This document shows, piece after piece, positions 11,668 through 43,666 of a stretch of 64,000 nucleotides of DNA. Origin of the DNA: an uncultured Pseudomonadota bacterium (GTDB taxonomy: Bacteria; JAMCPX01). A program made the position numbers and the translations under genes. The notes beneath the pieces are model-generated. The model was not told where the DNA came from. It searched no databases and saw only the letters and a list, made by a program, of their open reading frames with translations. The stretch spans positions 4,067 through 68,066 of the forward strand of contig CAZJPN010000040.1 in the NCBI GenBank assembly GCA_964547905.1, read 5' to 3'. Position 1 is the stretch's first letter, and each line of letters starts with the position of its first letter.

Positions 11668-11683
11668 ATTGAGGTTTAATTGT

Positions 11684-12531: not shown

Positions 12532-12532
12532 T

Positions 12533-14223: not shown

Positions 14224-14696
14224 TTCAGTTTTCACAGTCGGCAAAAGATAAGGTTGAAGAATTGAAAAGGGCGTATCCTACAAAGGATGCATGTCTGCTT
14301 CCCGTATTGCATATTGCCCAGAAAGAATTCGGGTATATCTCTCCCGAGGTAATGGAGTATGTTGCCGGTGTGGTCGGAGTATCACCTGCAAGGGTATACG
14401 GTGTCGCTACATTCTACACCATGTACAATAAAAAGCCCGTGGGTAAGTATCATGTCCAGGTATGTACCAACATATCCTGTCACCTTGAAGGCTCTGCAAA
14501 GATCGTTGATACCCTCAGATCTGTTTTAGGTATAGAAGAAGGACAAACGACAAAAGATAATATGTTTACCCTCTCTACCGTTGAATGTCTCGGGGCATGT
14601 GGGTTTGGCCCTGTAGTTCAGATAAACGATGAGTATTACGAACAGTGCACGGAAGAAAAAGTGAAAGAAATTATAGGGGATCTCAGGAAGAAGTAA
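14220..14696 (+). CDS. nuoE: NADH-quinone oxidoreductase subunit E
   Basis: 158 aa with the thioredoxin-like 2Fe-2S motif (CTNISCHLEG...CLGACGFGP). Confidence 0.9.
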   Translation: MIQFSQSAKDKVEELKRAYPTKDACLLPVLHIAQKEFGYISPEVMEYVAGVVGVSPARVYGVATFYTMYNKKPVGKYHVQVCTNISCHLEGSAKIVDTLRSVLGIEEGQTTKDNMFTLSTVECLGACGFGPVVQINDEYYEQCTEEKVKEIIGDLRKK

Positions 14697-15967: not shown

Positions 15968-15983
15968 AAACAGGAAACGTGAA

Positions 15984-18691: not shown

Positions 18692-18693
18692 TT

Positions 18694-19233
18694 ATGCCAG
18701 AAAAAACCATGACAAAGAAAAAGAAAAATTATCCATTTAAAGAAGCGATTTATCTTATAGAGATACTCCGCGGACTTGGTGTTACGATTAAGCACTTTTT
18801 CGTAAAGCGGAAGTTCGCCATAAATTATCCCGAAGAAAAGCTAAAAATAGTTGGTAACACACAACAGACCATAAAGGTGATGGACAAGGATGCACAAAAG
18901 CTTATGGACAGGATAGAAGTTACCATGAATTACAGAGGGAAGCACGCGTTGCTTGTTGACGGGGATCTTGGAAGGTGTGTTGCGTGTAAAATGTGTGAAA
19001 CCGTATGCCCATTCTTTGCCATATACATTGAACCTGAGGAATCTCCCGATCCACGGAAGGAAAGAAGTCCGAAGATATTCGAAGTCGATCTTACACGGTG
19101 CGCATACTGCGGATACTGTGTTGAAGCGTGTCCCGAGAATGCAATAACGATGACATCGTTCTACAGCCTTGTTGCACGGCAAAGACCGGAGCTATCCATA
19201 CAGAAAAAAGAATTGAGGACCGTGATAAAATGA
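18694..19233 (+). CDS. nuoI: NADH-quinone oxidoreductase subunit I
   Basis: 179 aa with two 4Fe-4S ferredoxin motifs (CVACKMCETVCP, CAYCGYCVEACP). Confidence 0.9.
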   Translation: MPEKTMTKKKKNYPFKEAIYLIEILRGLGVTIKHFFVKRKFAINYPEEKLKIVGNTQQTIKVMDKDAQKLMDRIEVTMNYRGKHALLVDGDLGRCVACKMCETVCPFFAIYIEPEESPDPRKERSPKIFEVDLTRCAYCGYCVEACPENAITMTSFYSLVARQRPELSIQKKELRTVIK

Positions 19234-19733
19234 TAAGCAATGCATTGTTTTACATAACCGCAGTCTTATTAGTTTTAACTTATATTTATGCCGTCATTGC
19301 GGGGAATCCTGTTTATAGCGCTATAGCGATGGGAATCGCATTTTTCCTTACGTCTTTTATGTTTGTTCTGCTCGGAGCCCCATTCCTTGCAGTGGTGCAG
19401 GTCATTATATATGTCGGTGCGATGCTCGTCATGTTCCTCTTCATTATTATGATGTTCAACCTGAACAAATTATCGACTGAGCCTGTTCAATACAAAGCAT
19501 CGACCATTTTCTCATATTTTCTTATAATGGTTGTTTTGTTGATATCTTTTTACATGGCACGAGGAGTATTAAAGATGCCCCAGGGATTTACTATTGTAGG
19601 ATTTGGTTCTGCAGAAAATATAGGCTTTAATCTTATGCGTTATTACCTGCTGCCGTTTGAGCTTGCATCTTTTATCCTTCTCGTCGGCATCTTTGGTGCT
19701 ATAGCGTTTATTAAAAAAAGGAATAAGATATGA
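19230..19733 (+). CDS. nuoJ: NADH-quinone oxidoreductase subunit J
   Basis: Start moved to the ATG overlapping the nuoI stop (MISNALFYITAV...). 167-aa membrane subunit. Confidence 0.85.
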   Translation: MISNALFYITAVLLVLTYIYAVIAGNPVYSAIAMGIAFFLTSFMFVLLGAPFLAVVQVIIYVGAMLVMFLFIIMMFNLNKLSTEPVQYKASTIFSYFLIMVVLLISFYMARGVLKMPQGFTIVGFGSAENIGFNLMRYYLLPFELASFILLVGIFGAIAFIKKRNKI

Positions 19734-20029
19734 GCTACCAATTGCTTATCGTTCTTAGTTTTGTACTGTTTGCAATAGGTATGATTGGTGTTGCCATGCG
19801 AAGAAATATTGTTATTGTACTTATATCCCTTGAACTTATGCTTAACGCAGTGAATATCCTTTTCGTATCCGCATCAAAGTATATGCACACTCTGGACGGT
19901 CAGATATTTGTTATCATGGTTATAACCATAGCAGCGGCAGAAACAGCAATAGCCCTTGCACTTGTTGTAAAGATATTTAAGACAGTCGGTATGGTAAAGA
20001 TAGACGACTTGAAGAAGCTTAAATGGTGA
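19730..20029 (+). CDS. nuoK: NADH-quinone oxidoreductase subunit K
   Basis: 99 aa of NuoK/ND4L family sequence. Confidence 0.9.
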   Translation: MSYQLLIVLSFVLFAIGMIGVAMRRNIVIVLISLELMLNAVNILFVSASKYMHTLDGQIFVIMVITIAAAETAIALALVVKIFKTVGMVKIDDLKKLKW

Positions 20030-20033
20030 TAAA

Positions 20034-21971
20034 ATGGAACTGAACATAGTAAGATATATCTTAATATTTCCCATGCTTGGATTTTTGGTAAACGGTCTTA
20101 TCGGACATAGGCTTGGGAATAAAGCAGTAGGATGGATTGCTAATATTACTGTGCTTTTAAGCTTATCTATTTCAGTGTACCTGTTTTTACAGCTTCTTTC
20201 ATTACCACCTAATGGAAGACTTATAACGGATACGGTGTATACATGGATAAATTCAGGGAGCCTCAACATAGACTTCAAGCTCATGGTAGATCCTCTTACC
20301 GCTGTTATGCTGCTTGTTGTGACTGGTGTTGGATTCTTGATACATATTTATTCTGTAGGATACATGCACGGAGACAAAGGTTATTCAAGATACTTCTCCT
20401 ATCTTAACCTGTTTATGTTTTCAATGCTACTGCTTGTACTTTCATCGAATATTGTACTTATGTTTGTGGGTTGGGAAGGCGTTGGTTTGTGCTCTTATCT
20501 CTTAATAGGCTTCTGGTATGAGAAGGATTCAGCCGCAAATGCAGGTAAAAAGGCCTTTATAACAAACAGGATAGGAGATTATGGCTTTTTACTTGGTTTG
20601 TTCTTGCTTGCATCTGCATTTGCTTCAAAGGGAATTTTAACACTTGATTTTACTACGATGGCAGCACACATATCCCTTATCTCACCACAAATACTTACTA
20701 TCGTTGGAATACTTTTGTTTGTTGGAGCAACGGGTAAATCAGCACAGTTGCCCCTGTATGTATGGCTTCCTGACGCAATGGAAGGTCCGACACCGGTGAG
20801 TGCCCTTATCCACGCTGCAACCATGGTCACGGCAGGCGTATACATGATAGCAAGGATGAACTTCTTATATGTGCTTGCACCAACGGCACTGGAGGTTGTT
20901 GCAATTGTGGGAGGTCTTACTGCCCTCTATGCGGCAACCATAGGAGTTGTTCAAAACGATATAAAAAGGGTGCTTGCGTACTCCACCATCAGTCAGCTCG
21001 GCTACATGTTTGTCGGTGTCGGTGTTGGTGCGTTCAGTGCTGGTATATTTCATCTCATGACGCATGCCTTTTTTAAGGCTCTGCTCTTTCTTGGTGCAGG
21101 CAGTGTGATGCATGCCCTTTCAGGGGAGCAGGACATGAGAAAGATGGGTGGTTTGAAAAATAAGATCCCGGTAACATACGCAGTATTTCTTGCTGCTGCA
21201 CTCGCGATATCAGGCATACCGGGGCTGTCCGGGTTTTTCAGCAAGGATAGCATTCTTGCTGCAGCCTATGCGTCTGGTCATAAAGTAATCTGGTTCTTGG
21301 GTTTTATAACTGCTCTTTTAACGGCTTTCTATATATTCAGACTTATATATATGACATTTTATGGAGAGAGCCGTGTGGAAAAACATGCTGCCGAACACAT
21401 TCATGAATCACCAAAGGTGATGACCATTCCACTTATTATACTTGCTGTTCTGTCTGTGATAGGTGGCTATATAGGTGTGCCACAGTTCCTCGGGAATATA
21501 GTCGGATGGCATAATTCCGACATATTTGTTCATTTCCTCGCACCTGTCTTTCATACCATGCCTGAACATGAAATGTCTGTTTCTACTGATTCATGGCTTA
21601 TGATTGGATCTATTACCATGGCAATTTTAGGCGTATTCTTTGCATGGTATGTCTATCTCAAATCGAAGATGCAGCCTGCAAAAAATGCTGCTGAGTCTTT
21701 ACCCGGTTTCTACAGGTTAGTTCTGAATAAATATTATGTCGATGAGATTTATAACGCAATTATTATCAAGCCGCTTATGTGGGTGTCGGAGTCCTTCCTC
21801 TGGAAGATATTCGATGTAGGGGTTGTTGATGGTGCTGTTAACGGCTCTGCGCATGTAACGCAATGGGCATCTACAAAACTCAGGAAGATACAGACAGGTG
21901 ATTTTCAGGTATATGTGATGCTGTTCTTGATAGGCGTCATCTCGGTTTTAGCATACTTTGTGTTGAGGTAG
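20034..21971 (+). CDS. nuoL: NADH-quinone oxidoreductase subunit L
   Basis: 645 aa of NuoL/ND5 antiporter-like subunit. Confidence 0.9.
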   Translation: MELNIVRYILIFPMLGFLVNGLIGHRLGNKAVGWIANITVLLSLSISVYLFLQLLSLPPNGRLITDTVYTWINSGSLNIDFKLMVDPLTAVMLLVVTGVGFLIHIYSVGYMHGDKGYSRYFSYLNLFMFSMLLLVLSSNIVLMFVGWEGVGLCSYLLIGFWYEKDSAANAGKKAFITNRIGDYGFLLGLFLLASAFASKGILTLDFTTMAAHISLISPQILTIVGILLFVGATGKSAQLPLYVWLPDAMEGPTPVSALIHAATMVTAGVYMIARMNFLYVLAPTALEVVAIVGGLTALYAATIGVVQNDIKRVLAYSTISQLGYMFVGVGVGAFSAGIFHLMTHAFFKALLFLGAGSVMHALSGEQDMRKMGGLKNKIPVTYAVFLAAALAISGIPGLSGFFSKDSILAAAYASGHKVIWFLGFITALLTAFYIFRLIYMTFYGESRVEKHAAEHIHESPKVMTIPLIILAVLSVIGGYIGVPQFLGNIVGWHNSDIFVHFLAPVFHTMPEHEMSVSTDSWLMIGSITMAILGVFFAWYVYLKSKMQPAKNAAESLPGFYRLVLNKYYVDEIYNAIIIKPLMWVSESFLWKIFDVGVVDGAVNGSAHVTQWASTKLRKIQTGDFQVYVMLFLIGVISVLAYFVLR

Positions 21972-21977
21972 GATGAA

Positions 21978-23525
21978 ATGGGATTTAAAGAAAATATACT
22001 TTCGATTATAATCTTTTTACCGCTCCTTGGGGTATTGTTTGGTGCATTTATAAATAAAGATAATAAATCTGTCATAAAGTGGTTTACGCTGATAGTATCA
22101 CTGATAGAATTTGTTGTCTCATTGTTTTTGGTCATACACTTTGACTCTTCATCTATAGGTATGCAGTTTACGGAGAAATATGCATGGATACCGGTGTACA
22201 ATATTAACTACCAGCTCGGCATAGACGGGCTAAGCCTGCTTCTTATACTTTTAACGACATTTCTTACCCCGCTTGTGCTTCTCGGTTCCTGGACATACAT
22301 AAAGAAACGCGAGAAGGAATATTATCTGTGGTTCCTCGTGCTTGAAACCGGTATGATCGGTGTTTTTGCTTCACTGGATCTTATTCTTTTCTATGTATTC
22401 TGGGAAGCGATGCTTATACCGATGTACATCATCATAGGTGTCTGGGGAGGTCCACGCAGGATATATGCTGCCGTAAAATTCTTTATATATACAATGTTCG
22501 GAAGTCTGCTAATGTTGGTGGCAATTATTTATCTTTACTTTGCTTACGGTGCTCAGACAGGCACCTACACCTTTGACCTGTTAAAACTGTACAACCTTTC
22601 CCTGCCATTGAGCACACAGATATGGCTGTTTGCAGCCTTTGCACTTTCTTTCGCTATTAAGGTTCCAATATTTCCGTTTCATACATGGTTGCCTGACGCA
22701 CACGTTGAGGCACCGACAGGCGGTAGTGTTATTCTTGCAGGCGTTTTACTGAAGATGGGGACCTATGGATACATGCGATTGGCAATGCCATTGTTTCCAA
22801 TCGCTGCAAATGCCTTCCTTCCTTATATTGCAGTGCTTGCAATCATAGGTATTATTTATGGGGCGCTTGTTGCAATGATGCAGCCTGATATCAAAAAACT
22901 GGTTGCCTATTCGTCCGTCAGCCATCTCGGGCTTGTTATACTCGGGCTCATGGCTCTCAATATTGAGAGTGTTGATGGTTCGGTCCTGCAAATGATCAAC
23001 CATGGGCTTTCAACTGGCGCACTTTTTATGCTTGTCGGTATGATATATGAACGCAGGCACACAAGGGAGCTCTCTGAGTTTGGCGGTATTGCAAAGACCA
23101 TGCCTGTTTTTGCAACAATATTTATGATCGTAACGCTTTCTTCCATAGGACTGCCAGGCCTCAATGGGTTTATAGGAGAGTTCCTCATATTGTTAGGTTC
23201 ATTTTTTGCAAGGCCGATATATGCCGTCTTTGCAGGTATAGGTGTTATCCTTGGTGCTGTATACATGTTGAGAACCTATCAGAAGGTGTTTTTTGGTAAG
23301 ATAACGAACAAGGCGAATGAGGATCTTAAAGATTTGAGCCCAAGGGAAATTATTGTTATGATACCTATATTGATAATGATCGTCTGGATTGGTGTTTATC
23401 CAAAGCCATTCCTCAATATTATCCATAATGCGAGTGAATCATACATTCAGTATGTCAAACCGCAGACAACGCAGATCAATTATCAGCAGAATACCGTGCC
23501 ACAAATGCCAGAGAGGTTAAAATAA
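21978..23525 (+). CDS. nuoM: NADH-quinone oxidoreductase subunit M
   Basis: 515 aa of NuoM/ND4 family sequence. Confidence 0.9.
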   Translation: MGFKENILSIIIFLPLLGVLFGAFINKDNKSVIKWFTLIVSLIEFVVSLFLVIHFDSSSIGMQFTEKYAWIPVYNINYQLGIDGLSLLLILLTTFLTPLVLLGSWTYIKKREKEYYLWFLVLETGMIGVFASLDLILFYVFWEAMLIPMYIIIGVWGGPRRIYAAVKFFIYTMFGSLLMLVAIIYLYFAYGAQTGTYTFDLLKLYNLSLPLSTQIWLFAAFALSFAIKVPIFPFHTWLPDAHVEAPTGGSVILAGVLLKMGTYGYMRLAMPLFPIAANAFLPYIAVLAIIGIIYGALVAMMQPDIKKLVAYSSVSHLGLVILGLMALNIESVDGSVLQMINHGLSTGALFMLVGMIYERRHTRELSEFGGIAKTMPVFATIFMIVTLSSIGLPGLNGFIGEFLILLGSFFARPIYAVFAGIGVILGAVYMLRTYQKVFFGKITNKANEDLKDLSPREIIVMIPILIMIVWIGVYPKPFLNIIHNASESYIQYVKPQTTQINYQQNTVPQMPERLK

Positions 23526-23526
23526 T

Positions 23527-24972
23527 ATGTACGTTGATTTAAATTACTCTGCAATACTTCCGCAAATAATAATTGCTCTGACACTTTTTATAAGTGCAAT
23601 GCTTGATGCTTTTACCTCGGCAAAAAAATGGCCTGTAGGCATCATAACATTGCTTGGAATAGGAACTGGGATTGGTTCGGCCATATACCTATGGGGAAAT
23701 AAGATTGTTTCGTTTTCTCAAATGGTTGCATTAGATGAATTTTCTCTATTTCTGTTTATAACTGTTATGATTGCAGGGTTTATAACGGTACTTGTTTCTT
23801 TGAAATATGTAGACGACATAGAATCAGATTCAGGGCATTTTTATCTGTTACTGTTGAGTTCCTTACTCGGAATGATGTTTCTTATTTCTGCAACAAATCT
23901 AATCATTATCGTACTCGGACTTGAGCTCATGAGCCTTTCCATATATCCATTGGTAGGATTCACGAGAGATAGACAAATAAGCCTTGAAGGGGCAATGAAA
24001 TATCTTGTTCTCGGTGCGTTTGCAACGGCCTTCATGCTCTATGGTATAGCCCTTATCTACAGCGTGCTTGGGACAATGGATCTTTATACTATAACAAGGG
24101 TTCTATCAACTACACAGAATCTTACAACCAATATAGTTATGATGGCGGGTGTCGCATTTATACTTATTGGATTTTCATTCAAGGTTGCACTTGTTCCCTT
24201 TCATGCATGGACGCCTGATGCCTATCAGGGGGCACCCGCACCTATTACCGGATTCATGGCTGCAGCAGTGAAGGCCGCAAGTTTTGCAGCAATTATAAAA
24301 GTGTTGATAATAGTTTTGAGTTCATATCATGTGCCTGTATCAGAGGCGCTTTGGTGGCTGAGTGCTGTTACCATGTTTACTGGTAATATCATTGCAGTAA
24401 TGCAGAAGAATGTAAAACGTATGCTTGCCTATTCGAGTATAGCCCACGCAGGATATGTGGTAGTAGGGCTTGTATCCGGAACTGCGTATGGCATGTCATC
24501 AGCCCTGTTTTATTTGATCTCCTATACCTTTACGATCACCGGTTCATTCGCAATCATTACCTATCTTGAGAAAAATGATGGGACAGGGAGTGAACTTTCT
24601 GATTTCAGTGGCCTTGCAAAAGACCATCCCTTTTTAAGCATTGTGATGACCGTATTTATGTTATCACTTGCCGGGATACCTCCGACAGCCGGATTTATGG
24701 CAAAATTTTATGTATTCAGTGCTGCAATCAAAAGCGGGTATATAGGGCTTGCAATCTTCGGTATTTTGACAAGTGTAATCTCACTATATTATTATCTCCG
24801 TATTGTTTATGCCATGTACTTTGAAGAAGCGGAGGTGCAGACAAATGTACCTGTACCGGTAGGCATATCAGCGGGTGTCATAATAGCTTTATGGGGTGTT
24901 ATCCAGCTTGGTATTTTACCTTCCGATATAATGAGTTTTGCCATGCAGTCCATCCAATCTATGATCCATTGA
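23527..24972 (+). CDS. nuoN: NADH-quinone oxidoreductase subunit N
   Basis: 481 aa of NuoN/ND2 family sequence. Confidence 0.9.
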   Translation: MYVDLNYSAILPQIIIALTLFISAMLDAFTSAKKWPVGIITLLGIGTGIGSAIYLWGNKIVSFSQMVALDEFSLFLFITVMIAGFITVLVSLKYVDDIESDSGHFYLLLLSSLLGMMFLISATNLIIIVLGLELMSLSIYPLVGFTRDRQISLEGAMKYLVLGAFATAFMLYGIALIYSVLGTMDLYTITRVLSTTQNLTTNIVMMAGVAFILIGFSFKVALVPFHAWTPDAYQGAPAPITGFMAAAVKAASFAAIIKVLIIVLSSYHVPVSEALWWLSAVTMFTGNIIAVMQKNVKRMLAYSSIAHAGYVVVGLVSGTAYGMSSALFYLISYTFTITGSFAIITYLEKNDGTGSELSDFSGLAKDHPFLSIVMTVFMLSLAGIPPTAGFMAKFYVFSAAIKSGYIGLAIFGILTSVISLYYYLRIVYAMYFEEAEVQTNVPVPVGISAGVIIALWGVIQLGILPSDIMSFAMQSIQSMIH

Positions 24973-25156: not shown

Positions 25157-25792
25157 TCAAACTTCCCTATTTTTCAAACGCATTTTCCGGGTTGATAGCA
25201 AAGAATAAGCTGTTATTATTACAGATCCAATAAGCCAACTGCCAAAAACATCGCTCGGCCAGTGTACTCCAAGGTAGACGCGGCTTATGCCGACAGATAG
25301 TACTATTATAAACGCAACAGTATACGTCCACAATCGTGCAAGATGCAGTCTTCTTAAGATGATGACAAGCTCCACGATTATGACAAAGGTCATTATCGAA
25401 TGACCGCTTGGAAAGGAATATCCAGAGGCCGGTATACCGAGCCAGCTTATAGGTCTGGTTCTGTGCACAAGCTCTTTGACGGAAACCTCCGTTACGAAAC
25501 TCAAAAAAGATATGGCAAGGAATTCTTTTACTTGTCTGTATGCTTTGCGTCTCCACAGCCATCCGCCTATTATTACAATAATTACTATTACGGTGTATTC
25601 ATTACCCAATAGAGTAAACAGTTCCATGACAATAAGCATTGCATTTGATTTGTTTTGTTGGATAATGCTTATAAAGAAAATGTCGAAGGCACTTGTTTTA
25701 TTCAATACGACCAATAAGGTCAGGTCAATGGTGCATACGCTCAGTACTATCAATAAAACAAGGCGGTATAAAAAGTACCGTTTATGAGACAT
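25157..25792 (-). CDS. PAP2-family phosphatase (phosphatidic acid phosphatase type 2 / haloperoxidase fold)
   Basis: 211 aa, membrane-bound. Motifs KxxxxxxRP (KELVHRTRP), PSGH (SFPSGHS) and SRVYLGVHWPSD (SRxxxxxHxxxD). Confidence 0.75.
   Translation of the reverse strand: MSHKRYFLYRLVLLIVLSVCTIDLTLLVVLNKTSAFDIFFISIIQQNKSNAMLIVMELFTLLGNEYTVIVIIVIIGGWLWRRKAYRQVKEFLAISFLSFVTEVSVKELVHRTRPISWLGIPASGYSFPSGHSIMTFVIIVELVIILRRLHLARLWTYTVAFIIVLSVGISRVYLGVHWPSDVFGSWLIGSVIITAYSLLSTRKMRLKNREV
25159..25172. repeat. right arm of the 14-nt inverted repeat (CAAACTTCCCTATT)
   Basis: Reverse complement of 24984-24997. It overlaps the 3' end of the PAP2 gene. Confidence 0.35.
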
Positions 25793-25794
25793 GG

Positions 25795-26793
25795 CTATGT
25801 CTTGAGCTGGGTATAGTTCGAATATAGACCTTGAGGAAACTCCGGCAGTATATTGCGCGTTACATCCTGCATGTCATGCTCCGATAGCTTCTTTCTCCGG
25901 TGCAGCCTGTTGAGCTGTTTCCGTATCTGAGTGGCGATATGTATTATCTCAATACCTGTTGGATCGAATTGTGTATAAATAGACTTGTCTCCATTGTTGA
26001 GTACGTCAAAGATGGCATCAATGGAATAATGCTTGTACGTATCAAACTGCTGGTTCGAAAGTTGCCACTTTTTGTCGGAGGTAATGCCCTTAAATATATT
26101 TCTGATAAGTTTTTTCTTGTTAACAAGCATCATACCGTTAAAGATATTTTTATTGGTTGAGAAAGAAAAGAGTGTTTTTTCAAGCGTATGTTTGAGCAGG
26201 TCATTGTCATCCTTGTGTCGCAGTTTAAGGGTTCTTTCTATGGTTTTTACGGCCTTATCGTTTACAAGCTTGTCAAAGCGTATTTCCCAGTAGGAGTGAA
26301 GAAACATTTTTTTTCTGTACATTGTTATGATCATGTTCGGGACAAAATAGTTATGTGCTATTACGTCGGACGCAAGGTGGCTGATATAACCATAGGCAAA
26401 AGCTCTCTGGTGGTCGTTTTTTGCCGATTTAAACACCTGATTTGCTACAAGCCAATTATGACAATGATATTCATACTCCGTAAAATTCTTTCCTATGACA
26501 ATATCCGCGCCGATATTGCCGTACAGAAAGTCGTATGGATAACTTTTGATGAGCCCCATTATCTGGGGTGCCAGCAGTTGGGAGAAGTTCAATACTTCCG
26601 TAGCGAGATCTATGTGGGATATGGGACCCCAGCAAAAACCGGTTGATGGAAAGATTATTATGAGCAATATTGCCGTAAAAAGTACAGACGGCCAGAACAA
26701 ATGTTTCTGTAAAAAAAAAGCCTTTTGTATTTGGTTATTTATTATTAGAGGATGTTTTGTCTGCAGACTGGTTACTTGTTTTATTCTGTGCAT
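25795..26793 (-). CDS. zinc-dependent phospholipase C-like family protein (start uncertain)
   Basis: A signal/TM segment followed by [11 protein letters not shown] and [12 protein letters not shown] (His-rich, PLC-like). The 5' end overlaps the FmdB gene by about 59 nt, so the true start is probably downstream (non-ATG). Confidence 0.45.
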
Positions 26794-28795: not shown

Positions 28796-29695
28796 TTAAA
28801 ATTTGCCAGTGTCAAAATCCTTAAATATTTGTTTTATCTTGATTATTTCGTCTTTATCCATAAATTTTTTTCTGTCATAATCGAGTTCATGCCCTAATCC
28901 TAAAGACTTGTCCGTCCATAATGGATTGTATGAGAGCAATTTTACTTTCTTAATACCATTCTTGTCAAGAAAGTTTGCTATAGACACAAGATTTTCCTCT
29001 GTGGTTGTTATATCAGGGATCAAAGGGACTCGAGGGGTTATCGCTATACCACCTTTATCGTACAATCTCAGAAAGTTTTGTAGAATAACAGTGTTCGTAG
29101 TGCCTGTGTACTTCTCGTGCAGGATTGGATCTATAAATTTTATATCAAAGAACACCATATCAATTGATGGTAACACAAGCTTATCGAACAATGCATAATT
29201 ATACAATCCGCATGTTTCTATATTTAAATGTATGCCCGCTGATTTTAATTTTATGGAAAGAGCCGATAAAAAATACATATATACTGTAGGCTCCCCGCCG
29301 GAAAACGTTACCCCACCGAATGAATGTCTGTAGAAAGGTTCATCTTTCATGATCTCTGAAAATAATGCATCAATAGTATAAGGCCTTCCTGCACGTTTCA
29401 GTGCCCCGGATGGGCAAACATCCACACATTCCATGCACCTGTTGCATGCCTGGCGGTTAATCCTTTCGGTGTCAGCAAGGTCTATTGCATGCTGTTTACA
29501 TGCCTGTACACAATCTCCACAGGAGATACACACCTTTGAATCGAACATAAGTTCCTGATATGCATGTTTTGTCTCCGGGTTATGACACCACACGCACCTG
29601 AGAGGGCAACCCTTAAAAAAGATAAGTGTACGAATGCCGGGTCCGTCATCAAGGGAATTTCTTTTGAGATCAACGATCATCGCCTGTGTTTCCAT
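28796..29695 (-). CDS. glycyl-radical enzyme activating protein (long form with extra 4Fe-4S clusters)
   Basis: 299 aa. N-terminal radical-SAM motif CPLRCVWCHNPE, plus two ferredoxin-like Cys clusters (CISCGDCVQAC, CNRCMECVDVCP). Typical of activases for the PFL2/eliminase GRE class. Confidence 0.85.
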   Translation of the reverse strand: METQAMIVDLKRNSLDDGPGIRTLIFFKGCPLRCVWCHNPETKHAYQELMFDSKVCISCGDCVQACKQHAIDLADTERINRQACNRCMECVDVCPSGALKRAGRPYTIDALFSEIMKDEPFYRHSFGGVTFSGGEPTVYMYFLSALSIKLKSAGIHLNIETCGLYNYALFDKLVLPSIDMVFFDIKFIDPILHEKYTGTTNTVILQNFLRLYDKGGIAITPRVPLIPDITTTEENLVSIANFLDKNGIKKVKLLSYNPLWTDKSLGLGHELDYDRKKFMDKDEIIKIKQIFKDFDTGKF

Positions 29696-29899
29696 CTATG
29701 TCCAGCCTTTTTTACTCTATGGCCCGTTATAATTCAAGTGTCATTACGAGGAGCGGGTACCAAACTAAGTTTGGGCGGATGAAGTAATCTACAAGCAGAG
29801 GGATTGCTCGACTCAGCTTCGTCCCGCGTTGCGCGGGATGCCACTCGGCTTGCAACGACATGAAGCTATATTTATGCAGGGTTATATAGTTACTTTCTT
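29696..29899 (-). promoter_or_regulatory. structured ~200-nt intercistronic spacer between the GRE and its activase
   Basis: Several GC-rich hairpins are visible: CCCGCG-TTG-CGCGGG, CCAAACT-A-AGTTTGG, and an outer GCTTC...GAAGC pair. No ORF. An AAAGG RBS sits just before the activase ATG. Confidence 0.3.
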
Positions 29900-32884
29900 T
29901 CATACCCTCATCTGCTGCCTGTTTATGATTTCAAGCTGGAGGTCCTTGTCAAGTTCCACGAAGTAGGCGTTGTACCCGGACACCCGCACCAGAAGGTTTC
30001 TGTAATTTTCCGGATGTTCCATTGCATCTTTTAATGTCTCTGTTGTTACAATATTGAACTGCATCTGCATACCTCCGAGTTCAAAGTAGGATTTTGCGTA
30101 CGCTGTGATCTGGTCAACGGTTTCTTTATGCGTATCCCTTGAATCGGGTGCTACCTTTACGTTGAATGCTATGTTGTTTGGCATCTTCTCCGGCTTAAGC
30201 CCTGCTATTGTCCTTATGCTCGAAAGCAGGTCAACGCCTTTCACATTCTCCGGGGTCAGTCCCGGTGTAAATGGCTTATACCTTAATCTTCCGCTTGGTA
30301 ATGCACCTGAAAGTGTACCGAATGCAACATGGTTTGACATACTCCAGAATCCTACCAAATAATGCCCGCCCCTGTAGTTTGTCCTGTTGTAGAATATATC
30401 AAACACTGTATCTATGACTCTCTGGGCAAGCCGGTTTACCTCTGGATTATCCGAACCGAACTTGGCAACCTTGTTTTGAATCATGGCATGGAGTTTTTCA
30501 TAGCCCTCAAAGTTGTTGTCAATGGCTTTATGGAGTGTTTTAAAATCCGCTTTTTTTTCGTCATAAACAAGTTTCTTTATTGTCATAAGGCTGTCCACAA
30601 TGTCGGTTAATCCGATACAGGCAACGCCTGATGTATTGTACATGGCGCCCCCTTCTGTTAGATCCTTGGCACTGTCCATGGGCCCTGTAAACATGGATGA
30701 AAGGGTTGGTGTTGGCCGTATAACCTGATGTGCAAACCCGAGGCTGTTGTTGTAATCTATTGTCTGATATGCAAGGAATCGTAATTGTTTCTCAAATGCA
30801 CTGAAGAAATCTTCAAATGTAGGGAATGCATCTTCTTCGATACTGCCTGTTTTACTGCCAATCTGCTCTTCTGCCAGAGGATGGATGCCGTTGTTGAGTG
30901 CCATCTCGAGTGCAGCTACCATGTTAAACATCATGCTGTTTGTATGTCCGAAGTGTTTGCCAGGTATGGTAGGCTCAACGCACCCCGTAGCACACCACTG
31001 CCGTGCATCTTCTTCTTTGAATCCGATACTTTTGAGGGACTGTATCATTGCCTTATCATTGTGGATAGAAGGGGTTGCAGTTGTTACCATATTTACCTCG
31101 ACAAGCCTTCTCAAATAGGTATCCGAGTTGATATCGGGATAGTACCTGGCATTCATGTTGGGATCACGTATGGTGAGCATCTCAGTGACCTTGAGGAAGA
31201 TATAGGTCATGTCGTTAACCGCACTGTTGCCGTTTTCATCTATACCACCGAGCGTGATCGCCTGATCTGAGGATGAGCCACCAAAGAGTTTGTTCCCTAT
31301 GTCAGCTACGAGCGGTAGATGATCCTGACACCTGAAAAAGAAATTCCCTATAAGCTCTATTGCCTGTTTTATATAGGTTTCCTTTTCTTCCGCTGTTTTC
31401 AGCTTTTGCATATCCGATTCAAAGTACGGCTGCAGCCACAGATCAAGATGACCGAGCGATAGCCCTGCATTTGTACTTTCGTTGTGCAGGGCAATCCACA
31501 GTATCCAGAGAGACTGTACAGCCTCGTACAGTGTTCGTGCACCATAAGCCGGTACCCTTCCCAGCATATCTGCAACCCTTTTGTAATGTTCTGCAGTACC
31601 GTTGGCAGCACCGTGTTTTTGTGTCTCTGTGGTAAGCCCGATAGCCTCTTCTTTAAGATTATTCGCATAATTAAGTACGCCCTGCAGTGCGATCTCTATT
31701 GCACTGTAGAATGTTTTATGTCTTTCATCATCCGTCTTAGCTTTTCTCTTTGCTGCATCTTCTATTGCAGGAGCAAGTCCGTACTTCAGCATCCTTGGAA
31801 AATCAGGAACAGTATGTGATAGGGCAACGGTCTTCCACATGAAGTACAATACAAACTTTTCATCAAGTTCCTGATACCTCGGAAAATTATTTGTGGAGCG
31901 TGCATATTCTCTTACATTGAGATCAGACCAGAACGGGAATACCTTTTTGTCTAATGATTCTACTGAGTGCTCGTCTATATCATAAGGCTGGATCTTTCTT
32001 GTTGATATTGTTTTCAATTCCGGCCAGAGTGTAATGCCGTGACCTTCTGGATAAATGACAACACCAACATCCCTTGATGTTGTTGTCCCGGCAAGCATAC
32101 TGTTTGCTCGTATAAAGGGTTTTTTATTTGTGAGGATGTAATTGAGTGCCTGTGCCTGTCTGAGTATTGGGGGTCTTCTTGTGCCTTCTCTGTCATGTTC
32201 AAACCCTGTTTTCATAAAATATTCTGTTATAAGTTCGGGTCTTTCCGGACAGATTGAAGGTTTTGATGAAAAGTGTAAAGCCCTCTGAGCATCAAGGCCC
32301 GGAAAATCTTCTATTGTATATTTCTGAAGGTATTGTTCATCAAGGTATTTTACATTATCATTCGGTTTTGCAGTTAATTGTCCATTCCGGGATATAAGTG
32401 GAACATTGTTTTCTTTTGTTTGTTTATCATGCACAGATTTTGTTGCAGTATTTGTTACTGCTTTTTTATCTGCTTTTGGCGGTATAAAATTATTAAGCAG
32501 ATATGCAAATCTGGAAAGGTAGCTCAGATTGCCCTTGAAGGTAAGTTTGTTGGTCAATAGATAATTTAGCATATCTTCCGGTGAAAGTGTTGCAAATTCT
32601 TTGATTATTCCCGGAGATTTGTATATTATCGTCAGGTCTGCTTTTTCGGGTATGCCGTGCCTTACTTTCATCTTCCCATCGTGGAATATCATGTAAAGTT
32701 TTACAGATTTATCACGCGTCTGTATTGCGATTGTCTTGTTAAAGGTATTGTATTCATTCTTGATCATCTCTCTGAATTTCTTGTTGAATGTAAATTTCAA
32801 GGACATGCTCTTAAGGAGCACATACATAATGTTTTCCAAAACCAGAGGATTTGTTAAGATAGTTTCTTTTGCACTTGTTTCCAT
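29900..32884 (-). CDS. glycyl radical enzyme (PFL2/eliminase-type core) with N-terminal SCP2-like lipid-binding domain
   Basis: 994 aa. C-terminal glycyl-radical motif RVSGYNAYF. Cys loop ATGCVEP (GCxE, as in the dehydratase/lyase GREs). The N-terminal ~175 aa match the SCP2 pattern (...DGKMKVRHGIPEKADLTIIYKSPGIIKEFATLSPEDMLNYLLTNKLTFKGNLSYLSRFAYLL). GGGAGG RBS upstream. Confidence 0.85.
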   Translation of the reverse strand: METSAKETILTNPLVLENIMYVLLKSMSLKFTFNKKFREMIKNEYNTFNKTIAIQTRDKSVKLYMIFHDGKMKVRHGIPEKADLTIIYKSPGIIKEFATLSPEDMLNYLLTNKLTFKGNLSYLSRFAYLLNNFIPPKADKKAVTNTATKSVHDKQTKENNVPLISRNGQLTAKPNDNVKYLDEQYLQKYTIEDFPGLDAQRALHFSSKPSICPERPELITEYFMKTGFEHDREGTRRPPILRQAQALNYILTNKKPFIRANSMLAGTTTSRDVGVVIYPEGHGITLWPELKTISTRKIQPYDIDEHSVESLDKKVFPFWSDLNVREYARSTNNFPRYQELDEKFVLYFMWKTVALSHTVPDFPRMLKYGLAPAIEDAAKRKAKTDDERHKTFYSAIEIALQGVLNYANNLKEEAIGLTTETQKHGAANGTAEHYKRVADMLGRVPAYGARTLYEAVQSLWILWIALHNESTNAGLSLGHLDLWLQPYFESDMQKLKTAEEKETYIKQAIELIGNFFFRCQDHLPLVADIGNKLFGGSSSDQAITLGGIDENGNSAVNDMTYIFLKVTEMLTIRDPNMNARYYPDINSDTYLRRLVEVNMVTTATPSIHNDKAMIQSLKSIGFKEEDARQWCATGCVEPTIPGKHFGHTNSMMFNMVAALEMALNNGIHPLAEEQIGSKTGSIEEDAFPTFEDFFSAFEKQLRFLAYQTIDYNNSLGFAHQVIRPTPTLSSMFTGPMDSAKDLTEGGAMYNTSGVACIGLTDIVDSLMTIKKLVYDEKKADFKTLHKAIDNNFEGYEKLHAMIQNKVAKFGSDNPEVNRLAQRVIDTVFDIFYNRTNYRGGHYLVGFWSMSNHVAFGTLSGALPSGRLRYKPFTPGLTPENVKGVDLLSSIRTIAGLKPEKMPNNIAFNVKVAPDSRDTHKETVDQITAYAKSYFELGGMQMQFNIVTTETLKDAMEHPENYRNLLVRVSGYNAYFVELDKDLQLEIINRQQMRV

Positions 32885-32996
32885 ACCACACCTCCCTAAG
32901 CTACTGATTTTTTAGCTCTATGCACAAATTGAGCCATGAGGCTGCTTCTCTGTTTTTTGATCATATTTTTTCATTATTTTATTCCCCTCTTTATTA

Positions 32997-33779
32997 TTAC
33001 CCTTTTCTCTGGCTGCCTGTGATCTGAACAAATTTATTCAAAAAATGTATGACCTTTGCAGTAGGTCCAGGATACACAGATAGCTTCCTTTTCCGTATCC
33101 CCTTTATCGACTCTTTGATTACATGATCGGCCTTGTCCACAACAATCTTGATCACCTTTCCTGTTGGACTGATGCCGTAATCATCGGATTGCAGGATGGG
33201 CGTATCAGCCCAGAAAGGGTATAGAATGGTTACATCAATACCTTTTGAATGGACCTCCCCGTACAGAGACAGCCCGAACCCGCGCATTCCGAACTTCGAG
33301 GCTGAATATGCAGTACTGTACCTGGCACCGACGAACCCTGCGACAGATGACATGAGCACAATATGTCCCTTTTTCCTTTTCAGCATAGCCGGCAGGAACA
33401 TATAGGTAAGACGCATCGTTGCAAGCAGGTTTGTTTCCATAAGCTGTTCCCATTTGTCCCGCGGAACTTCTTGAAAATCTCCGTATGCAATAATGCCGGC
33501 ATTGTTTATCAAAATGTCTATATCCGGGGTTATCTCAAGACACCTGTCGTATAATTCCTCACATCCTTTTTTGTCGGAAAGGTTTGCGTTGATCAGTCCG
33601 ATAATCTTGCCTCCCGCATTGGATGAACCTAAACGATCAGCCATGCTGTCAAGCTTTGATTTGTTCCGACCACTGAGTATAAGATACGCCCCTAACTCAT
33701 AAAACTGCTTTGCAAATTCCTGCCCAAATCCGCCTGTTGCTCCAGTAACCAATATCTTTTTACCGAACAATGATTTCAT
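32997..33779 (-). CDS. SDR-family oxidoreductase
   Basis: 260 aa with the Rossmann motif TGATGGFG, NNAG, and the catalytic YSASK. It is the first gene of the SDR-GRE-activase string. Confidence 0.8.
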   Translation of the reverse strand: MKSLFGKKILVTGATGGFGQEFAKQFYELGAYLILSGRNKSKLDSMADRLGSSNAGGKIIGLINANLSDKKGCEELYDRCLEITPDIDILINNAGIIAYGDFQEVPRDKWEQLMETNLLATMRLTYMFLPAMLKRKKGHIVLMSSVAGFVGARYSTAYSASKFGMRGFGLSLYGEVHSKGIDVTILYPFWADTPILQSDDYGISPTGKVIKIVVDKADHVIKESIKGIRKRKLSVYPGPTAKVIHFLNKFVQITGSQRKG

Positions 33780-34016
33780 CGTTTTACCTGATTACCTTCC
33801 CTTAAAAAGAATAGCGTCATTATAGCGGTGTTATTTTTAAAGTCAAAGGGAAGAATTGACTCAAACACGCAAAGGGAAAGGTCGCTTGTTTGTTTGGGGT
33901 ATCATGACCTGACTTCCACCGGGGTAGCATTTGCAGATGAATGGACTCCTACATTCGCTTGACAAGAATGGTTTTATTAGGTAGCCAGATCTAATCAAAC
34001 TAAAAGTGAGGCACAG

Positions 34017-34340
34017 ATGTACGCAGTGATAAAACATTCCGGGAAACAATTCACGGTAAAACAGGGTGATGTTGTAGCTCTTGACAGGATAGAAGATGCT
34101 CAGAAAGATACGGAGCTGCAAATTACCGATGTTCTTCTTGTGAATGATGGCGCAAGCACCATTATCGGTACCCCTATCGTGGCCAATGCGTTTGTTAAGT
34201 TAAAGGTATTGGGCGAAAAAAAAGGTGATAAGATAGTTATCTTCAAACACAGAAGGAGAAAGAATTACAGGAAGAAGCAGGGGTTTAGGCAGATTTTTAC
34301 AACGGCGAAGGTCGAAGACATTATATATAAAAACAATTGA
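34017..34340 (+). CDS. rplU: 50S ribosomal protein L21
   Basis: MYAVIKHSGKQFTVKQGD..., 107 aa. Confidence 0.9.
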   Translation: MYAVIKHSGKQFTVKQGDVVALDRIEDAQKDTELQITDVLLVNDGASTIIGTPIVANAFVKLKVLGEKKGDKIVIFKHRRRKNYRKKQGFRQIFTTAKVEDIIYKNN

Positions 34341-41416: not shown

Positions 41417-43666
41417 ATGAAGCAGTTGCTTTCATACATAGTGCCTTATATCAATTTTATTGAAAACGCATTGTTAAACTACAACGGCAGGATAACGGAT
41501 CTCGGTACACAGATCATGTGGGGGGCTGTTTTTTTTCTCGGAATACTGTTTTTTTTTCTTCATAGAAGGTACAAAAACAAAGCAAAAAAAATTGATCAAA
41601 ACTCGGCGTCTTTGGGTAGACGTGCAGCAAGACTTTCAAAGATTGGTGATTTTATAAATTCAGCCAAGATTTATGAAAGAAGCGGCAATCTTCAACCCGC
41701 AGCGGATGCATACTATAAGGCGGGGGCGATATATTACGCGACACAGCTGTATAAGCGTTTGGGCATGAAAGATAAGCAAGCCTCGGCACTTGAGCAGATA
41801 AGTTTTCATAAAGAGGCAGGCGAACTCTACAGGGAATTATCCATGTATAAGCAGGCAGGAGAAAACCTGCTCAAAGCGGGTGAACTATTAAAGGCAGCAA
41901 ATATGCTTGAAACGACAGGAGAAATAGAGAAGGCTGCTGATACATATATGTCTGCAGGGTTTAATCTTCGTGCAGGGGAGATTTACACCAAGCTTGATGA
42001 CAAAGCTAAGATTGCCTCTGCATACGAGGCTTCGATTGTCATACCGAAAGGTGATATAATGCCAAGGGCAATAACGAATTATGCTATGAGGGCAATCCTG
42101 GCTTATATTGCCATGGGTAATATGCAAAAGGCGGCAGACGTTGCAGAGAAGGCCGGTTTAAAAAAGTATGCAGCAGAACTTTATTCTAAACTTGAGAACT
42201 GGGAAAAGGCAAGTGACCTTTATCTTTCAATGAACGATAAGAAATCAGCAGCGGATGTTATGGAAAAGGCTGGTTGGCAAGAAAAAGCCTCTCTTGTAAG
42301 GGCATCTTATTATGAAGATAACGGTATGAAGCGAGAAGCAATACAGATTTATGAAAAATTGAATAAATTTGATTACGCAGCAAGGCTCTATGTCTCGATA
42401 GGCGAAAAAATGAAGGCAGCAGAGCTTTATGCAAAGGCAGATAAGTATGTTGTTTCTGCGTCCCTATTCAAGGAGTTGGGTTATGTAGACAAGGCTTTAT
42501 CAATGCTGGAATCAGTATCTGAATCCGAAAAGCAGACCGGTGACGCCTTGATATTAAGGCTTGATCTGTTTATGGAAAAGGGCATGTACAAAGAGGCAAG
42601 TTCTCTTGTAGAAAAAATGCTTTCTGGAAAATCTCTTTCCGAAGAAAACTTACAGCTATATTATAAACTGGCTAATGTATACGAGGAAGAAGGAAGGGCA
42701 AAAGATGCAATAATAATATACAATAAACTTCTCAAAATCGATCCCGCTTATACGGATGTAAATGAACGAATAGAAAGACTAAAGCGAATAATTGAAGCAC
42801 CATCACCTTCCGTTATTGATCAGTATGCACAAACAGTTATGCTCTCTGATACCGGAGAGGGTATACTTTCAAAGCGATACAAACTCATCGAAGAGCTCGG
42901 AAGAGGCGGTATGGGCATAGTCATAAAAGCCCAGGATATTCTGCTTGGAAGGGTTGCTGCTATTAAGATTATGTCAACCGGGGGATCATCTGACCCAAAG
43001 CGCATAGACGCCTTTATACGGGAGGCAAGAACATCTGCTTCACTGAATCACCCCAATATTGTTACTGTTTATGATGTTGGCGAAGATAGAAATGCGTTTT
43101 ACATAGTCATGGAGTTTGTAGACGGTATGACCTTAAAAAGGTTTCTTGAGGACTACCCCGAAGGAATGCCAACGCAACTTTCGATATTCGTCGCCGTTCA
43201 GATGCTCAAGGGATTAGCATACGCCCATGAAAAAGGTATAATACACAGAGATATAAAGCCTTCGAATATCATGTGGACGCCGAAGAGGGTTGCTAAGCTT
43301 ATGGATTTCGGACTTGCAAAAGCTATGGAAGAGATAAAACATGGTGAAACCATTGTTGGTGGTACACCTCTTTATATGTCGCCGGAGCAGATACTTGGAG
43401 AGAAAACAGATTCAAGAACCGATATTTACTCTTTTGGATGTACACTGTATGAAATGCTTTCGGGTAAACCTCCTTTTACACAAGGTGATGTGGGTTATCA
43501 TCATGTACATACACCACCCATACCTATAAATAGTATCAATACTCAAATTCCTCGATGGCTATCCGATATCACTATAAAATGTCTCGAAAAACTTCCTGAA
43601 AATAGGTATCAGTCTGTTGAGCAATTATTTAATGATATACAAAAAAGTTATAAGGGAATGAAATGA
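41417..43666 (+). CDS. Ser/Thr protein kinase (Hanks-type) with N-terminal TM helix, ~13-residue repeat array and TPRs
   Basis: 749 aa. The C-terminal kinase has GRGGMGIV...AIK...HRDIKPSN...DFGLAK...GTPLYMSPE. The N-terminus has one TM helix (WGAVFFLGILFFFL), then about 20 repeats of the form xxKAA(E/D)xYxK(A/L)G. Confidence 0.8.
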   Translation: MKQLLSYIVPYINFIENALLNYNGRITDLGTQIMWGAVFFLGILFFFLHRRYKNKAKKIDQNSASLGRRAARLSKIGDFINSAKIYERSGNLQPAADAYYKAGAIYYATQLYKRLGMKDKQASALEQISFHKEAGELYRELSMYKQAGENLLKAGELLKAANMLETTGEIEKAADTYMSAGFNLRAGEIYTKLDDKAKIASAYEASIVIPKGDIMPRAITNYAMRAILAYIAMGNMQKAADVAEKAGLKKYAAELYSKLENWEKASDLYLSMNDKKSAADVMEKAGWQEKASLVRASYYEDNGMKREAIQIYEKLNKFDYAARLYVSIGEKMKAAELYAKADKYVVSASLFKELGYVDKALSMLESVSESEKQTGDALILRLDLFMEKGMYKEASSLVEKMLSGKSLSEENLQLYYKLANVYEEEGRAKDAIIIYNKLLKIDPAYTDVNERIERLKRIIEAPSPSVIDQYAQTVMLSDTGEGILSKRYKLIEELGRGGMGIVIKAQDILLGRVAAIKIMSTGGSSDPKRIDAFIREARTSASLNHPNIVTVYDVGEDRNAFYIVMEFVDGMTLKRFLEDYPEGMPTQLSIFVAVQMLKGLAYAHEKGIIHRDIKPSNIMWTPKRVAKLMDFGLAKAMEEIKHGETIVGGTPLYMSPEQILGEKTDSRTDIYSFGCTLYEMLSGKPPFTQGDVGYHHVHTPPIPINSINTQIPRWLSDITIKCLEKLPENRYQSVEQLFNDIQKSYKGMK

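Follow-up and report, generated by a model that had tools for sequence, protein, structure and literature searches.

A glycyl radical enzyme with an SCP2-fold domain at its N-terminus as a candidate lipid-headgroup eliminase or isomerase

We analysed a string of three genes on the minus strand (positions 28796-33779) of a 64,000-nt stretch of DNA from an uncultured Pseudomonadota bacterium (contig CAZJPN010000040.1; the whole stretch is called the window below). The string encodes a short-chain dehydrogenase/reductase (SDR), a 994-aa glycyl radical enzyme (GRE) and a 299-aa activase, and the GRE carries an SCP2-type lipid-carrier domain at its N-terminus. We consider it fairly probable that the three proteins form a radical enzyme system acting on an amphiphilic, lipid-like substrate, in which the GRE would be a lipid-headgroup 1,2-eliminase or isomerase. 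Such a system is probably new in two respects, as a GRE eliminase/isomerase scaffold with a new type of partner module and in its substrate class. The initial annotation of this DNA, made from the sequence alone, had noted that no characterised GRE was known to carry an SCP2 domain, and this was borne out. A GRE review of June 2026 covers six C-O, one C-N and three C-S eliminases, three isomerases, decarboxylases, X-succinate synthases (XSSs) and AAREs; none of them has a lipid substrate or an SCP2 domain, and whole clades are stressed as unannotated (PMC13450708). Full-text literature searches pairing GRE or pyruvate formate-lyase (PFL) with SCP2, ether lipid, phospholipid, aldehyde:ferredoxin oxidoreductase (AOR) plus lipid, Smithella and Asgard found no description of the architecture; a paper on anaerobic limonene concerns an X-succinate synthase and has no bearing on it.

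The N-terminal domain lies at the edge of detection by Pfam. In the full-length GRE the SCP2 profile (PF02036, gathering score 21.3 bits) matched aa 45-130 at 20.0 bits, whereas the N-terminus scanned alone reached 23.5-24.7 bits, over the gathering score. When the aligned N-termini of 49 relatives were scanned, 25 matched SCP2 at E<=0.01 (best E=2.5e-8) and 2 further ones matched the SCP2-like alkylsulfatase C-terminal family. An AlphaFold2 (AF2) model of aa 1-140 (pLDDT 86.8) was compared with the PDB by Foldseek, and the 46 best matches, down to E~5e-3, were all SCP2-fold proteins: UbiJ-SCP2 (6h6p, E=2e-7) was the best, and AF1534, human and insect SCP2, the SCP2-like domain (SCP2L) of MFE-2 and alkylsulfatase C-terminal domains were among the others. 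The order of secondary-structure elements (helices, four strands, two helices, a fifth strand and a C-terminal helix) is also that of SCP2. Because of the relatives' N-terminal matches, this secondary-structure order and the fold matches, we regard the SCP2 identity as settled despite the borderline score: by sequence and model, residues ~12-133 are an SCP2 fold, as the initial annotation had proposed. Since the score is borderline in the full-length protein, a precomputed PF02036 call is present in only 2 of the 120 homologues listed.

The SCP2 domain is joined to the catalytic core by a flexible linker, with pLDDT <50 over aa 138-150 in the full-length model. Across the family, this stretch (reference aa 132-172) is 31-75 aa long and variable in sequence, and its net charge is positive in 64 of 66 members (median +6). 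A conserved extended segment, or strap (~173-200, consensus D.V..L.DPYL..Y...DFPRL), leads from the linker into the core. An N-terminal extension of ~175 aa had been predicted; the extension is present, but relative to glycerol dehydratase (GDH) it is longer, ~185-200 aa, made up of the SCP2 domain (~12-133), the linker (~134-172) and the strap (~173-200).

Judged from its motifs and its predicted structure, the 994-aa protein is an intact GRE of the CXE class. Pfam PFL-like covers aa 206-856 (E=9e-157) and Gly_radical aa 874-976 (E=9.5e-24). The segment RVSGYNAYFVELDKDLQLEIINR (aa 967-989) fits the full GRE fingerprint RVxG[FWY]x6-8[FL]x4Qx2[IV]x2R, as defined in PMC13450708, and R967, S969, G970 and Y971 are unchanged in 66 of 66 family members. 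The Cys loop TGCVEPT holds a single cysteine, and G634-C635-V636-E637-P638 is invariant in the same 66 members; the CXE motif has been described as a mark of GRE 1,2-eliminases and isomerases (PMC13450708). In a residue-by-residue alignment Cys433, Glu435 and His164 of GDH correspond to Cys635, Glu637 and His357, which are likewise unchanged in all 66, so that the eliminase-type core first recognised by its GCVEP and RVSGY motifs gained the His164 equivalent. The full-length AF2 model, built on 66 homologues (pLDDT 91.4, pTM 0.92), resembled GDH, CutC, propanediol dehydratase, HypD and Archaeoglobus fulgidus PFL2 with target-normalised Foldseek TM scores of 0.91-0.95. In sequence, the nearest PDB relatives were A. 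fulgidus PFL2 (E=7e-110) and GDH (1.8e-101), followed by HypD-like dehydratases, propanediol dehydratase and CutC; the matches to MASS (3e-52), BSS (2.4e-43) and PFL (1.3e-25) were far weaker.

The predicted active-site positions S356, H357, T358, N472, S476, D540, Q541, H647, T648, S848, S850 and H852 are polar and near-invariant, which in sequence points to one polar head group common to the whole SCP2-GRE family. The 299-aa activase scored 289 bits on TIGR02494 (cut-off 174) and contains CxxxCxxC at C30/C34/C37 together with two ferredoxin-type cluster motifs (Pfam Radical_SAM and two Fer4), the long form that had been read from the sequence initially. By these signatures it is of the type that installs the radical on what is here Gly970.

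The fusion is found far beyond the window. A protein search found 209 relatives at E<=1e-10, of which the 120 best were listed; all but one fragment of these were 963-1080 aa long, with 95-100% query coverage and 46-88% identity. Homologues with a source name were labelled 'formate C-acetyltransferase' or 'pyruvate formate lyase family protein'. A genome scan with one genome per species found at least 586 relatives, and the best 80 of these loci align from about query residue 1-35 to the C-terminus. These best 80 came from Desulfobacterota (Smithella, Syntrophaceae, Desulfobacterales, Desulfatibacillaceae, Desulfomonilia), Bacillota (including the cultured Acididesulfobacillus acetoxydans INE), Actinomycetota (Anoxymicrobiaceae, Geothermincolia), Chloroflexota, Spirochaetota and Leptospirales, Myxococcota, Bacteriovoracaceae, SAR324 and the Asgard archaea (Jord-, Frey-, Hod- and Promethearchaeota), so that the N-terminal fusion at ~1000 aa is kept across >10 phyla. 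The window's own clade consists of unclassified metagenome-assembled genomes (MAGs) with 76-88% identity and is about 50% identical to all other relatives. A frameshift or a separate N-terminal gene, raised at the outset as an objection, was excluded by the single continuous open reading frame (ORF) and by the collinear architecture of these relatives.

A profile built from the N-terminal domain was also run against a set of 1.84 billion representative proteins; it gave 682 matches, of which 349 had E<=1e-10. Beyond N-fused GREs and their fragments, the matches included stand-alone proteins of 145-180 aa, as well as proteins in which a GRE C-terminus (...RVSGYTAYFKDLNPQMQ.EII.R) is followed by a linker and then by the same SCP2-type domain. 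Several more fragments with the C-terminal fusion turned up as well, one of them directly before an activase gene (locus L088). At another locus (L089), the GRE lacks the N-terminal domain, its frame being broken only by a masked N run. It is 38-42% identical to the window core, clearly closer than any characterised GRE, and the gene order is GRE, a 162-aa ORF, activase; the 162-aa ORF matched the N-terminal-domain profile with an hhalign probability of 99.4% (E=2e-21). The SCP2 module thus occurs with the window's GRE lineage in three forms, as an N-terminal fusion, as a separate gene and as a C-terminal fusion. This is the strongest of the new evidence: by the fusion/fission argument, three independent architectures point to parts that work together, and the sequences therefore argue that the SCP2 module is a functional partner of the GRE and not an accident.

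Several observations on the family stand beside this. At L089, a 616-aa DUF362 protein without an NCBIfam match (10811-12661) follows the activase and may be an extra Fe-S partner specific to this sister clade. Some genomes carry tandem SCP2-GRE genes, such as those for 990 and 989 aa in a Geothermincolia MAG (L034, 3908-9899) and others at L041, L023 and L021; at L021, another GRE-activase pair, a shorter one, comes after the N-fused pair. The tandem genes suggest paralogous diversification of the substrate range. One profile match of 371 aa (P0137) joins the SCP2-type domain to a C-terminal region unrelated to GREs, by eye of CoA-binding/sugar-transferase type; it could be another fusion partner, or a chimera of assembly or gene calling.

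The SDR, GRE and activase ORFs were found where the initial annotation had placed them, with the SDR immediately upstream of the GRE and behind a promoter-like site. The features of the string, and the downstream context, are as follows.

33819..33846, minus strand: promoter-like site TTGACT-16 nt-TATAAT (11/12 consensus matches; consensus match only), ~40 nt upstream of the SDR start codon
32997..33779, minus strand: SDR, 260 aa, first gene of the string (adh_short, E=1.8e-48)
29900..32884, minus strand: SCP2-fused GRE, 994 aa, a single uninterrupted ORF (Pfam, AF2 model)
32486..32851, minus strand: predicted SCP2 domain of the GRE, aa 12-133 (PF02036 and Foldseek)
32369..32485, minus strand: flexible basic linker of the GRE, aa 134-172 (low pLDDT)
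30317..32269, minus strand: PFL-like barrel core of the GRE, aa 206-856 (Pfam PFL-like)
30968-30988, minus strand: Cys loop TGCVEPT with Cys635 and Glu637 of the CXE motif (located in the sequence)
29957..30265, minus strand: glycyl radical domain of the GRE, aa 874-976 (Pfam Gly_radical)
29972-29989, minus strand: VRVSGY motif, with the Gly970 codon at 29975-29977
29822..29838, minus strand: hairpin TCCCGCG-CAA-CGCGGGA with a 7-bp G+C stem, in the 204-nt GRE-activase spacer
28796..29695, minus strand: activase, radical SAM, 299 aa (TIGR02494, Pfam Radical_SAM and Fer4)
25157..26793, minus strand: Zn-dependent phospholipase C (PLC)-like gene (25795-26793) and PAP2 phosphatase gene (25157-25792), by Pfam, context only

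The promoter-like site sits in a 237-nt divergent intergenic region (33780-34016) between the SDR gene and rplU, on the rplU/rpmA/obg side. A ribosome-binding site, GGGAGG, which we judged strong, precedes the GRE gene, and no terminator-like site was seen on the coding strand between the SDR, GRE and activase genes. The spacer hairpin (29822-29838) is unique and has no T-run after its stem, and the fold z-score of the 91 nt around it was -1.0 against shuffles, which is not significant; it might act on mRNA processing or stability and so set the ratio of GRE to activase. The SDR carries the classical motifs TGxxxGxG, NNAG and YxxxK and reached no NCBIfam equivalog cut-off. Downstream on the same strand, Pfam identified sigma-70, DivIVA, the Zn-PLC-like gene and PAP2, the last two 4-5 genes away from the string. 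The Zn-PLC-like protein matched its Pfam family at E=8.6e-20, had neither an NCBIfam match nor a PDB sequence match and, judged on this, looks like a divergent family member. The order Zn-PLC-like gene and PAP2 recurs in an 82%-identical relative (L006) and was not seen outside the window's clade.

In the same relative, a TetR (TetR_C_33) gene lies directly upstream of the SDR gene (8502-9179). The window is without it: on the 33780-34016 side we found no ORF of >=80 aa besides an unannotated 86-aa TTG ORF (33861-34121) on the strand opposite to rplU and overlapping rplU. The TetR regulator thus appears to have been lost or moved in the window genome. Elsewhere, the window holds one tRNA (5035-5107), a 982-aa PAS-PAS-GAF-HD(HD_5) signalling protein (5829-8777), an ORF run (13036-24972) in which four scanned ORFs match complex I (nuo) subunit families, and a 749-aa TPR-Ser/Thr kinase (41417-43666). 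This housekeeping context is consistent with a chromosomal location.

We compared the neighbourhoods of 79 non-redundant loci, in which ORFs were called crudely and clustered and neighbours were counted without a correction for kinship. The activase is adjacent in 60 of the 79, and most of the others end at contig edges. A TetR gene of the TetR_C_33 type lies directly upstream in 32, the SDR cluster is present in the fetched flanks of 22 (within 3 kb in 19), and AOR and an AMP-dependent ligase each occur in 11. A Pfam census of the 258 immediate neighbours of 76 loci gave TetR_N 29 times, adh_short 14, extended SDRs (Epimerase/3beta-HSD/NAD_binding_4) 12, AFOR 11, Exo_endo_phos (EEP) 7, PIG-L at least 4 and GDSL lipases 3, together with several Hydrolase_4 and other alpha/beta hydrolases. 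The identity of the EEP neighbour and of the window's Zn-PLC-like protein as phospholipases comes from Pfam alone, because PDB sequence searches gave no match. When the GREs were divided into seven sequence clusters, SDR occurred in four and AOR in three.

The neighbours differ from clade to clade. A clade of Desulfobacterota has the order Maf-GlpK-MlaE, ferredoxin-AOR, TetR-GRE-activase, EEP-thioredoxin, long-chain fatty-acid-CoA ligase-like gene, ADP-forming CoA ligase and acyl-CoA dehydrogenase, its GlpK scoring 739 bits, over the curated cut-off. In the Smithella clade, TetR-GRE-activase is followed by an extended SDR (HpnA/OleD/SdmB-like) and then by a classical SDR. Members of the window's clade have an SDR or a Hydrolase_4 esterase upstream and share the Zn-PLC-like gene and PAP2 downstream. 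PIG-L/LmbE-type de-N-acetylases adjoin the SCP2-GRE in Asgard archaea and Actinomycetota (L024 14505-15344, L055 8705-9547, L073 8893-9726, L074 652-1485, L078 4020-4838), and an inositol monophosphatase adjoins it at L030, which hints at an amino-sugar or inositol lipid head group. A patatin gene lies near the L089 GRE, and genes for FadL-type (Toluene_X) transporters are found at the flank ends of L002 and L003, ~10 kb from the GRE. In A. acetoxydans INE (L044) the order is TetR-GRE-activase-AOR; a literature search for expression data in Acididesulfobacillus found none. Taken together, the neighbours suggest that the product is a carbonyl or an alcohol and that the setting is the metabolism of fatty acids and polar lipids. 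As a separate observation, a Leptospiraceae SCP2-GRE has immediately upstream a Cas12a (Cpf1)-type locus (L003, 1-4825; REC1, RuvC and NUC, apparently in two ORFs), accompanied by Cas2 and by fragments of transposases.

In all characterised eliminases, whether of C-O, C-N or C-S bonds, and in the isomerases, the CXE glutamate takes the proton from the hydroxyl of the substrate (PMC13450708). From this role and from the invariant Cys635, Glu637 and His357 we infer hydrogen abstraction at a carbinol carbon, a ketyl radical, beta elimination and a carbonyl product. In our working model, drawn by analogy with UbiJ/UbiT and the SCP2-like domain of alkylsulfatases, the SCP2 domain would bind the hydrophobic lipid tail, possibly at the membrane surface and aided by the cationic linker, and would offer the hydroxylated head to the buried active site. 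The Cys635 thiyl radical would then take hydrogen from the carbinol carbon while Glu637 deprotonates the hydroxyl to give the ketyl radical; the beta leaving group (OH, OR, phosphate or amine) would depart with the help of His357, and the product radical would regain hydrogen from Cys635, yielding an aldehyde or ketone and possibly freeing a fatty alcohol. The SDR here (by alcohol/carbonyl interconversion), and AOR with the fatty-acid-CoA ligase elsewhere, could pass the product to fatty-acid metabolism. As substrate we think most likely a lipid that is built on glycerol or carries a polyol head and has a hydroxyl left free; alkyl- or acyl-glycerols, dialkylglycerols and long-chain vicinal diols are examples. 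The initial annotation had already inferred a lipid-like substrate with the SDR performing a hydroxyl/keto step, and that inference is strengthened by the three architectures of the SCP2 module and by neighbourhoods enriched in lipid and aldehyde enzymes.

A further and more specific proposal, which we hold to be improbable as it stands, is that in anoxic habitats the SCP2-GRE family supplies the missing means of cleaving membrane lipids at their ether bonds or polyol heads without oxygen. Speculative candidates are alkyl- and dialkyl-glycerols, cores of the plasmalogen or archaeol type, and lipids headed by inositol or glycerol. Along such a route, the neighbouring PLC-like proteins, phosphatases, deacetylases or esterases would bare a hydroxyl and SCP2 would lift the lipid from the membrane. 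A GRE ketyl radical beside the ether or another leaving group would expel a fatty alcohol or aldehyde, and SDR, AOR and the fatty-acid-CoA ligase would send the product to beta-oxidation. Ether lipids are the most interesting substrate option, because esters need no radical chemistry and because YbiW and PflD already show ether cleavage by GREs.

Several points weigh against a lipid-headgroup enzyme. The polar, near-invariant active-site set would equally fit a small polar substrate, the PF02036 score of the full-length protein falls short of the gathering score, and the long disordered linker of the model makes any docked pose of SCP2 on the core uncertain. The links to neighbours are partial and none is universal: SDR is present in about a quarter of the loci, and GlpK, MlaE, EEP, PLC and PAP2 are each confined to one clade, which could simply reflect synteny. 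Moreover, the window SDR is 26-27% identical over its full length to the SDRs beside SCP2-GREs in other phyla, so that orthology of the SDRs across clades was not established. Of the SDR, SCP2-GRE and activase neighbourhood that the initial annotation had suggested looking for in related genomes, the activase part stood, while the SDR, on these sequence comparisons, is a recurrent rather than a fixed partner.

The polar active site is also one of the grounds on which the SCP2-like module could be taken for a structural or regulatory accessory rather than a lipid carrier, with the enzyme acting on a small polar metabolite. Its position would suit this: in the sister clade the module is a small gene between GRE and activase, or is fused right after the glycyl radical domain, and the accessory subunits of multisubunit GREs are encoded and act at that place (PMC13450708 section 4.2). 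However, the known small subunits of GREs are Fe-S or rubredoxin-like proteins and not SCP2 folds (PMC13450708). The canonical SCP2 pattern and fold are kept here, its structural neighbours (UbiJ, SCP2, MFE-2 and the alkylsulfatases) all bind lipids or alkyl chains, and fatty-acid-CoA ligase, acyl-CoA dehydrogenase, lipases and MlaE are among the neighbours. We therefore judge an accessory role unlikely. A lipid-headgroup reaction could alternatively serve biosynthesis or membrane remodelling, for example by deoxygenation or dehydration of a lipid head or polyol side chain. The window string indeed lies among housekeeping and envelope genes (DivIVA, sigma-70, a PAP2 undecaprenyl-diphosphatase-like gene, Obg/ProB/ProA) and has no TetR regulator, and the extended SDRs of the Smithella clade are of the HpnA/OleD/SdmB-like, lipid-biosynthesis type. 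TetR control is nevertheless frequent in the family, AOR, fatty-acid-CoA ligase, acyl-CoA dehydrogenase and GlpK are catabolic partners, and the patchy spread over >10 phyla, combined with strong conservation of the core, suggests an accessory trait passed on by horizontal transfer, which leaves the biosynthetic role a slim chance.

Smaller still is the chance that the enzyme activates hydrocarbons in the manner of an X-succinate synthase, with SCP2 delivering alkanes, as has been proposed for A. fulgidus PflD and Asgard PflD-like GREs. A. fulgidus PFL2, the best solved relative, is debated between a dehydratase and MASS (PMC13450708), and PflD-like GREs of Hermodarchaeota, which share 33-38% identity with A. 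fulgidus PflD, have been given an Ass/Bss annotation (PMC8163825). The occurrence of the SCP2-fused family in Smithella, Syntrophaceae and Desulfatibacillaceae would fit such a role, and SCP2 suits a hydrophobic substrate. Yet the CXE glutamate and the His164 equivalent, hallmarks of hydroxyl-activating enzymes, are invariant, and the frequent AOR and SDR partners fit a carbonyl product and not a succinate adduct. Genes for small Fe-S or rubredoxin subunits (beta, gamma, delta) were sought in the 79 neighbourhoods and none was found; the candidate small accessory ORFs were MoaC, a Fis-type HTH protein or unannotated. With the similarity to BSS and MASS far below that to the dehydratases and with no accessory subunit genes found in the 79 neighbourhoods, the X-succinate synthases were rejected. 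We therefore retain the 1,2-eliminase or isomerase acting on a lipid head group as the preferred reading.

If the more specific ether- or polyol-lipid route proposed above is real, no GRE before this one would have had a lipid substrate or a lipid-carrier subunit. Turnover of ether and polyol lipids in anoxic sediments is poorly understood, and the family could explain an anaerobic attack on ethers, polyol side chains and similar parts of lipids that resist hydrolases. The substrates of all characterised PFL-like GREs are small soluble molecules or, where Fe-S accessory subunits take part, hydrocarbons (PMC13450708). By recruiting an SCP2 lipid carrier, a GRE clade would bring amphiphilic lipids within reach of glycyl-radical chemistry, and the present clade includes sulfate reducers and syntrophs as well as Chloroflexota, Actinomycetota, spirochaetes and Asgard archaea. 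The family has been overlooked, with an SCP2 score just under the Pfam threshold in the full-length protein and with members named as formate-lyase-type proteins. The cultured A. acetoxydans INE offers an experimental entry point.

Finally, we compared the window GRE with the known systems. All named GRE families were rejected, since the window GRE falls short of their NCBIfam equivalog or subfamily cut-offs or lacks their substrate residues. GDH and propanediol dehydratase (PDB 1r8w, 5i2g, 9rco) share the ten-stranded barrel (Foldseek TMt 0.93-0.94, 27-29% identity), the CXE Cys loop, the His164 equivalent, the glycyl fingerprint and a long-form activase, and hydrogen abstraction at the carbinol carbon followed by beta-elimination to a carbonyl is likely the same chemistry. 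In contrast to the window GRE, they lack the extra ~200-aa N-terminal region with SCP2. The glycerol-binding residues of GDH are also replaced (S282 by G474, H281 by A473, Y339 by D540, D447 by N649, Y640 by W847 and N156 by M349), so that of the diol-binding residues H164, H281, S282, Y339, D447 and Y640 only H164 is kept, and on the GDH family TIGR01774 the protein scores 482 bits (cut-off 678). Bacterial microcompartment genes, at which no search was aimed, did not show up in the flanks examined.

CutC, IslA, IseG and HpsG belong to the same class and share the CXE mechanism, and they demonstrate that groups other than water can leave in this scaffold. In CutC, whose residue correspondence with GDH is established, Asp216 and Tyr208 bind the trimethylammonium group and Thr502 is a further pocket residue. 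Here, Asp216 is replaced by His357, and Tyr208 corresponds to position 349, which varies (M/L/S/V/Q) in the SCP2-GRE family. The window GRE reached no CutC, IslA or HpsG equivalog cut-off (377 bits on CutC TIGR04394, cut-off 1050). Its scores against the HypD, HpsG/HpfG, decarboxylase and PFL families of NCBIfam were all below the cut-offs as well (371/1100, 342/1000, 339/1000, 258/1100, 198/1150 and 125/994 bits).

The isomerases YbiW and PflD, which act on 1,5-anhydroglucitol/mannitol-6-phosphate, also have the CXE motif and are the closest precedent for ether cleavage, since after deprotonation by the Glu the ring ether C-O bond of the sugar is cleaved (PMC13450708). They differ in their soluble sugar-phosphate substrates, in having no lipid-binding domain and in sequence (~23-25% identity; 352 bits on NF007437, cut-off 1109). 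A. fulgidus PFL2/PflD (PDB 2f3o), the best solved sequence relative, shares the CXE loop, and its function is not assigned either; it is 776 aa long, has no SCP2 domain and is ~27% identical in the structural alignment.

For the N-terminal domain, the best structural matches were UbiJ/UbiT, the C-terminal domain of the alkylsulfatases SdsA1/Pisa1 and MFE-2 SCP2L. These SCP2 modules differ from that of the window GRE in sequence (14-21% identity), and none has a known GRE partner. UbiT is thought to present lipid to the O2-independent hydroxylases UbiU and UbiV. The logic in all of these systems is alike: a lipid module, tethered or separate, holds the tail while its catalytic partner works on the head, and this is the arrangement that we propose for the SCP2-fused GRE.

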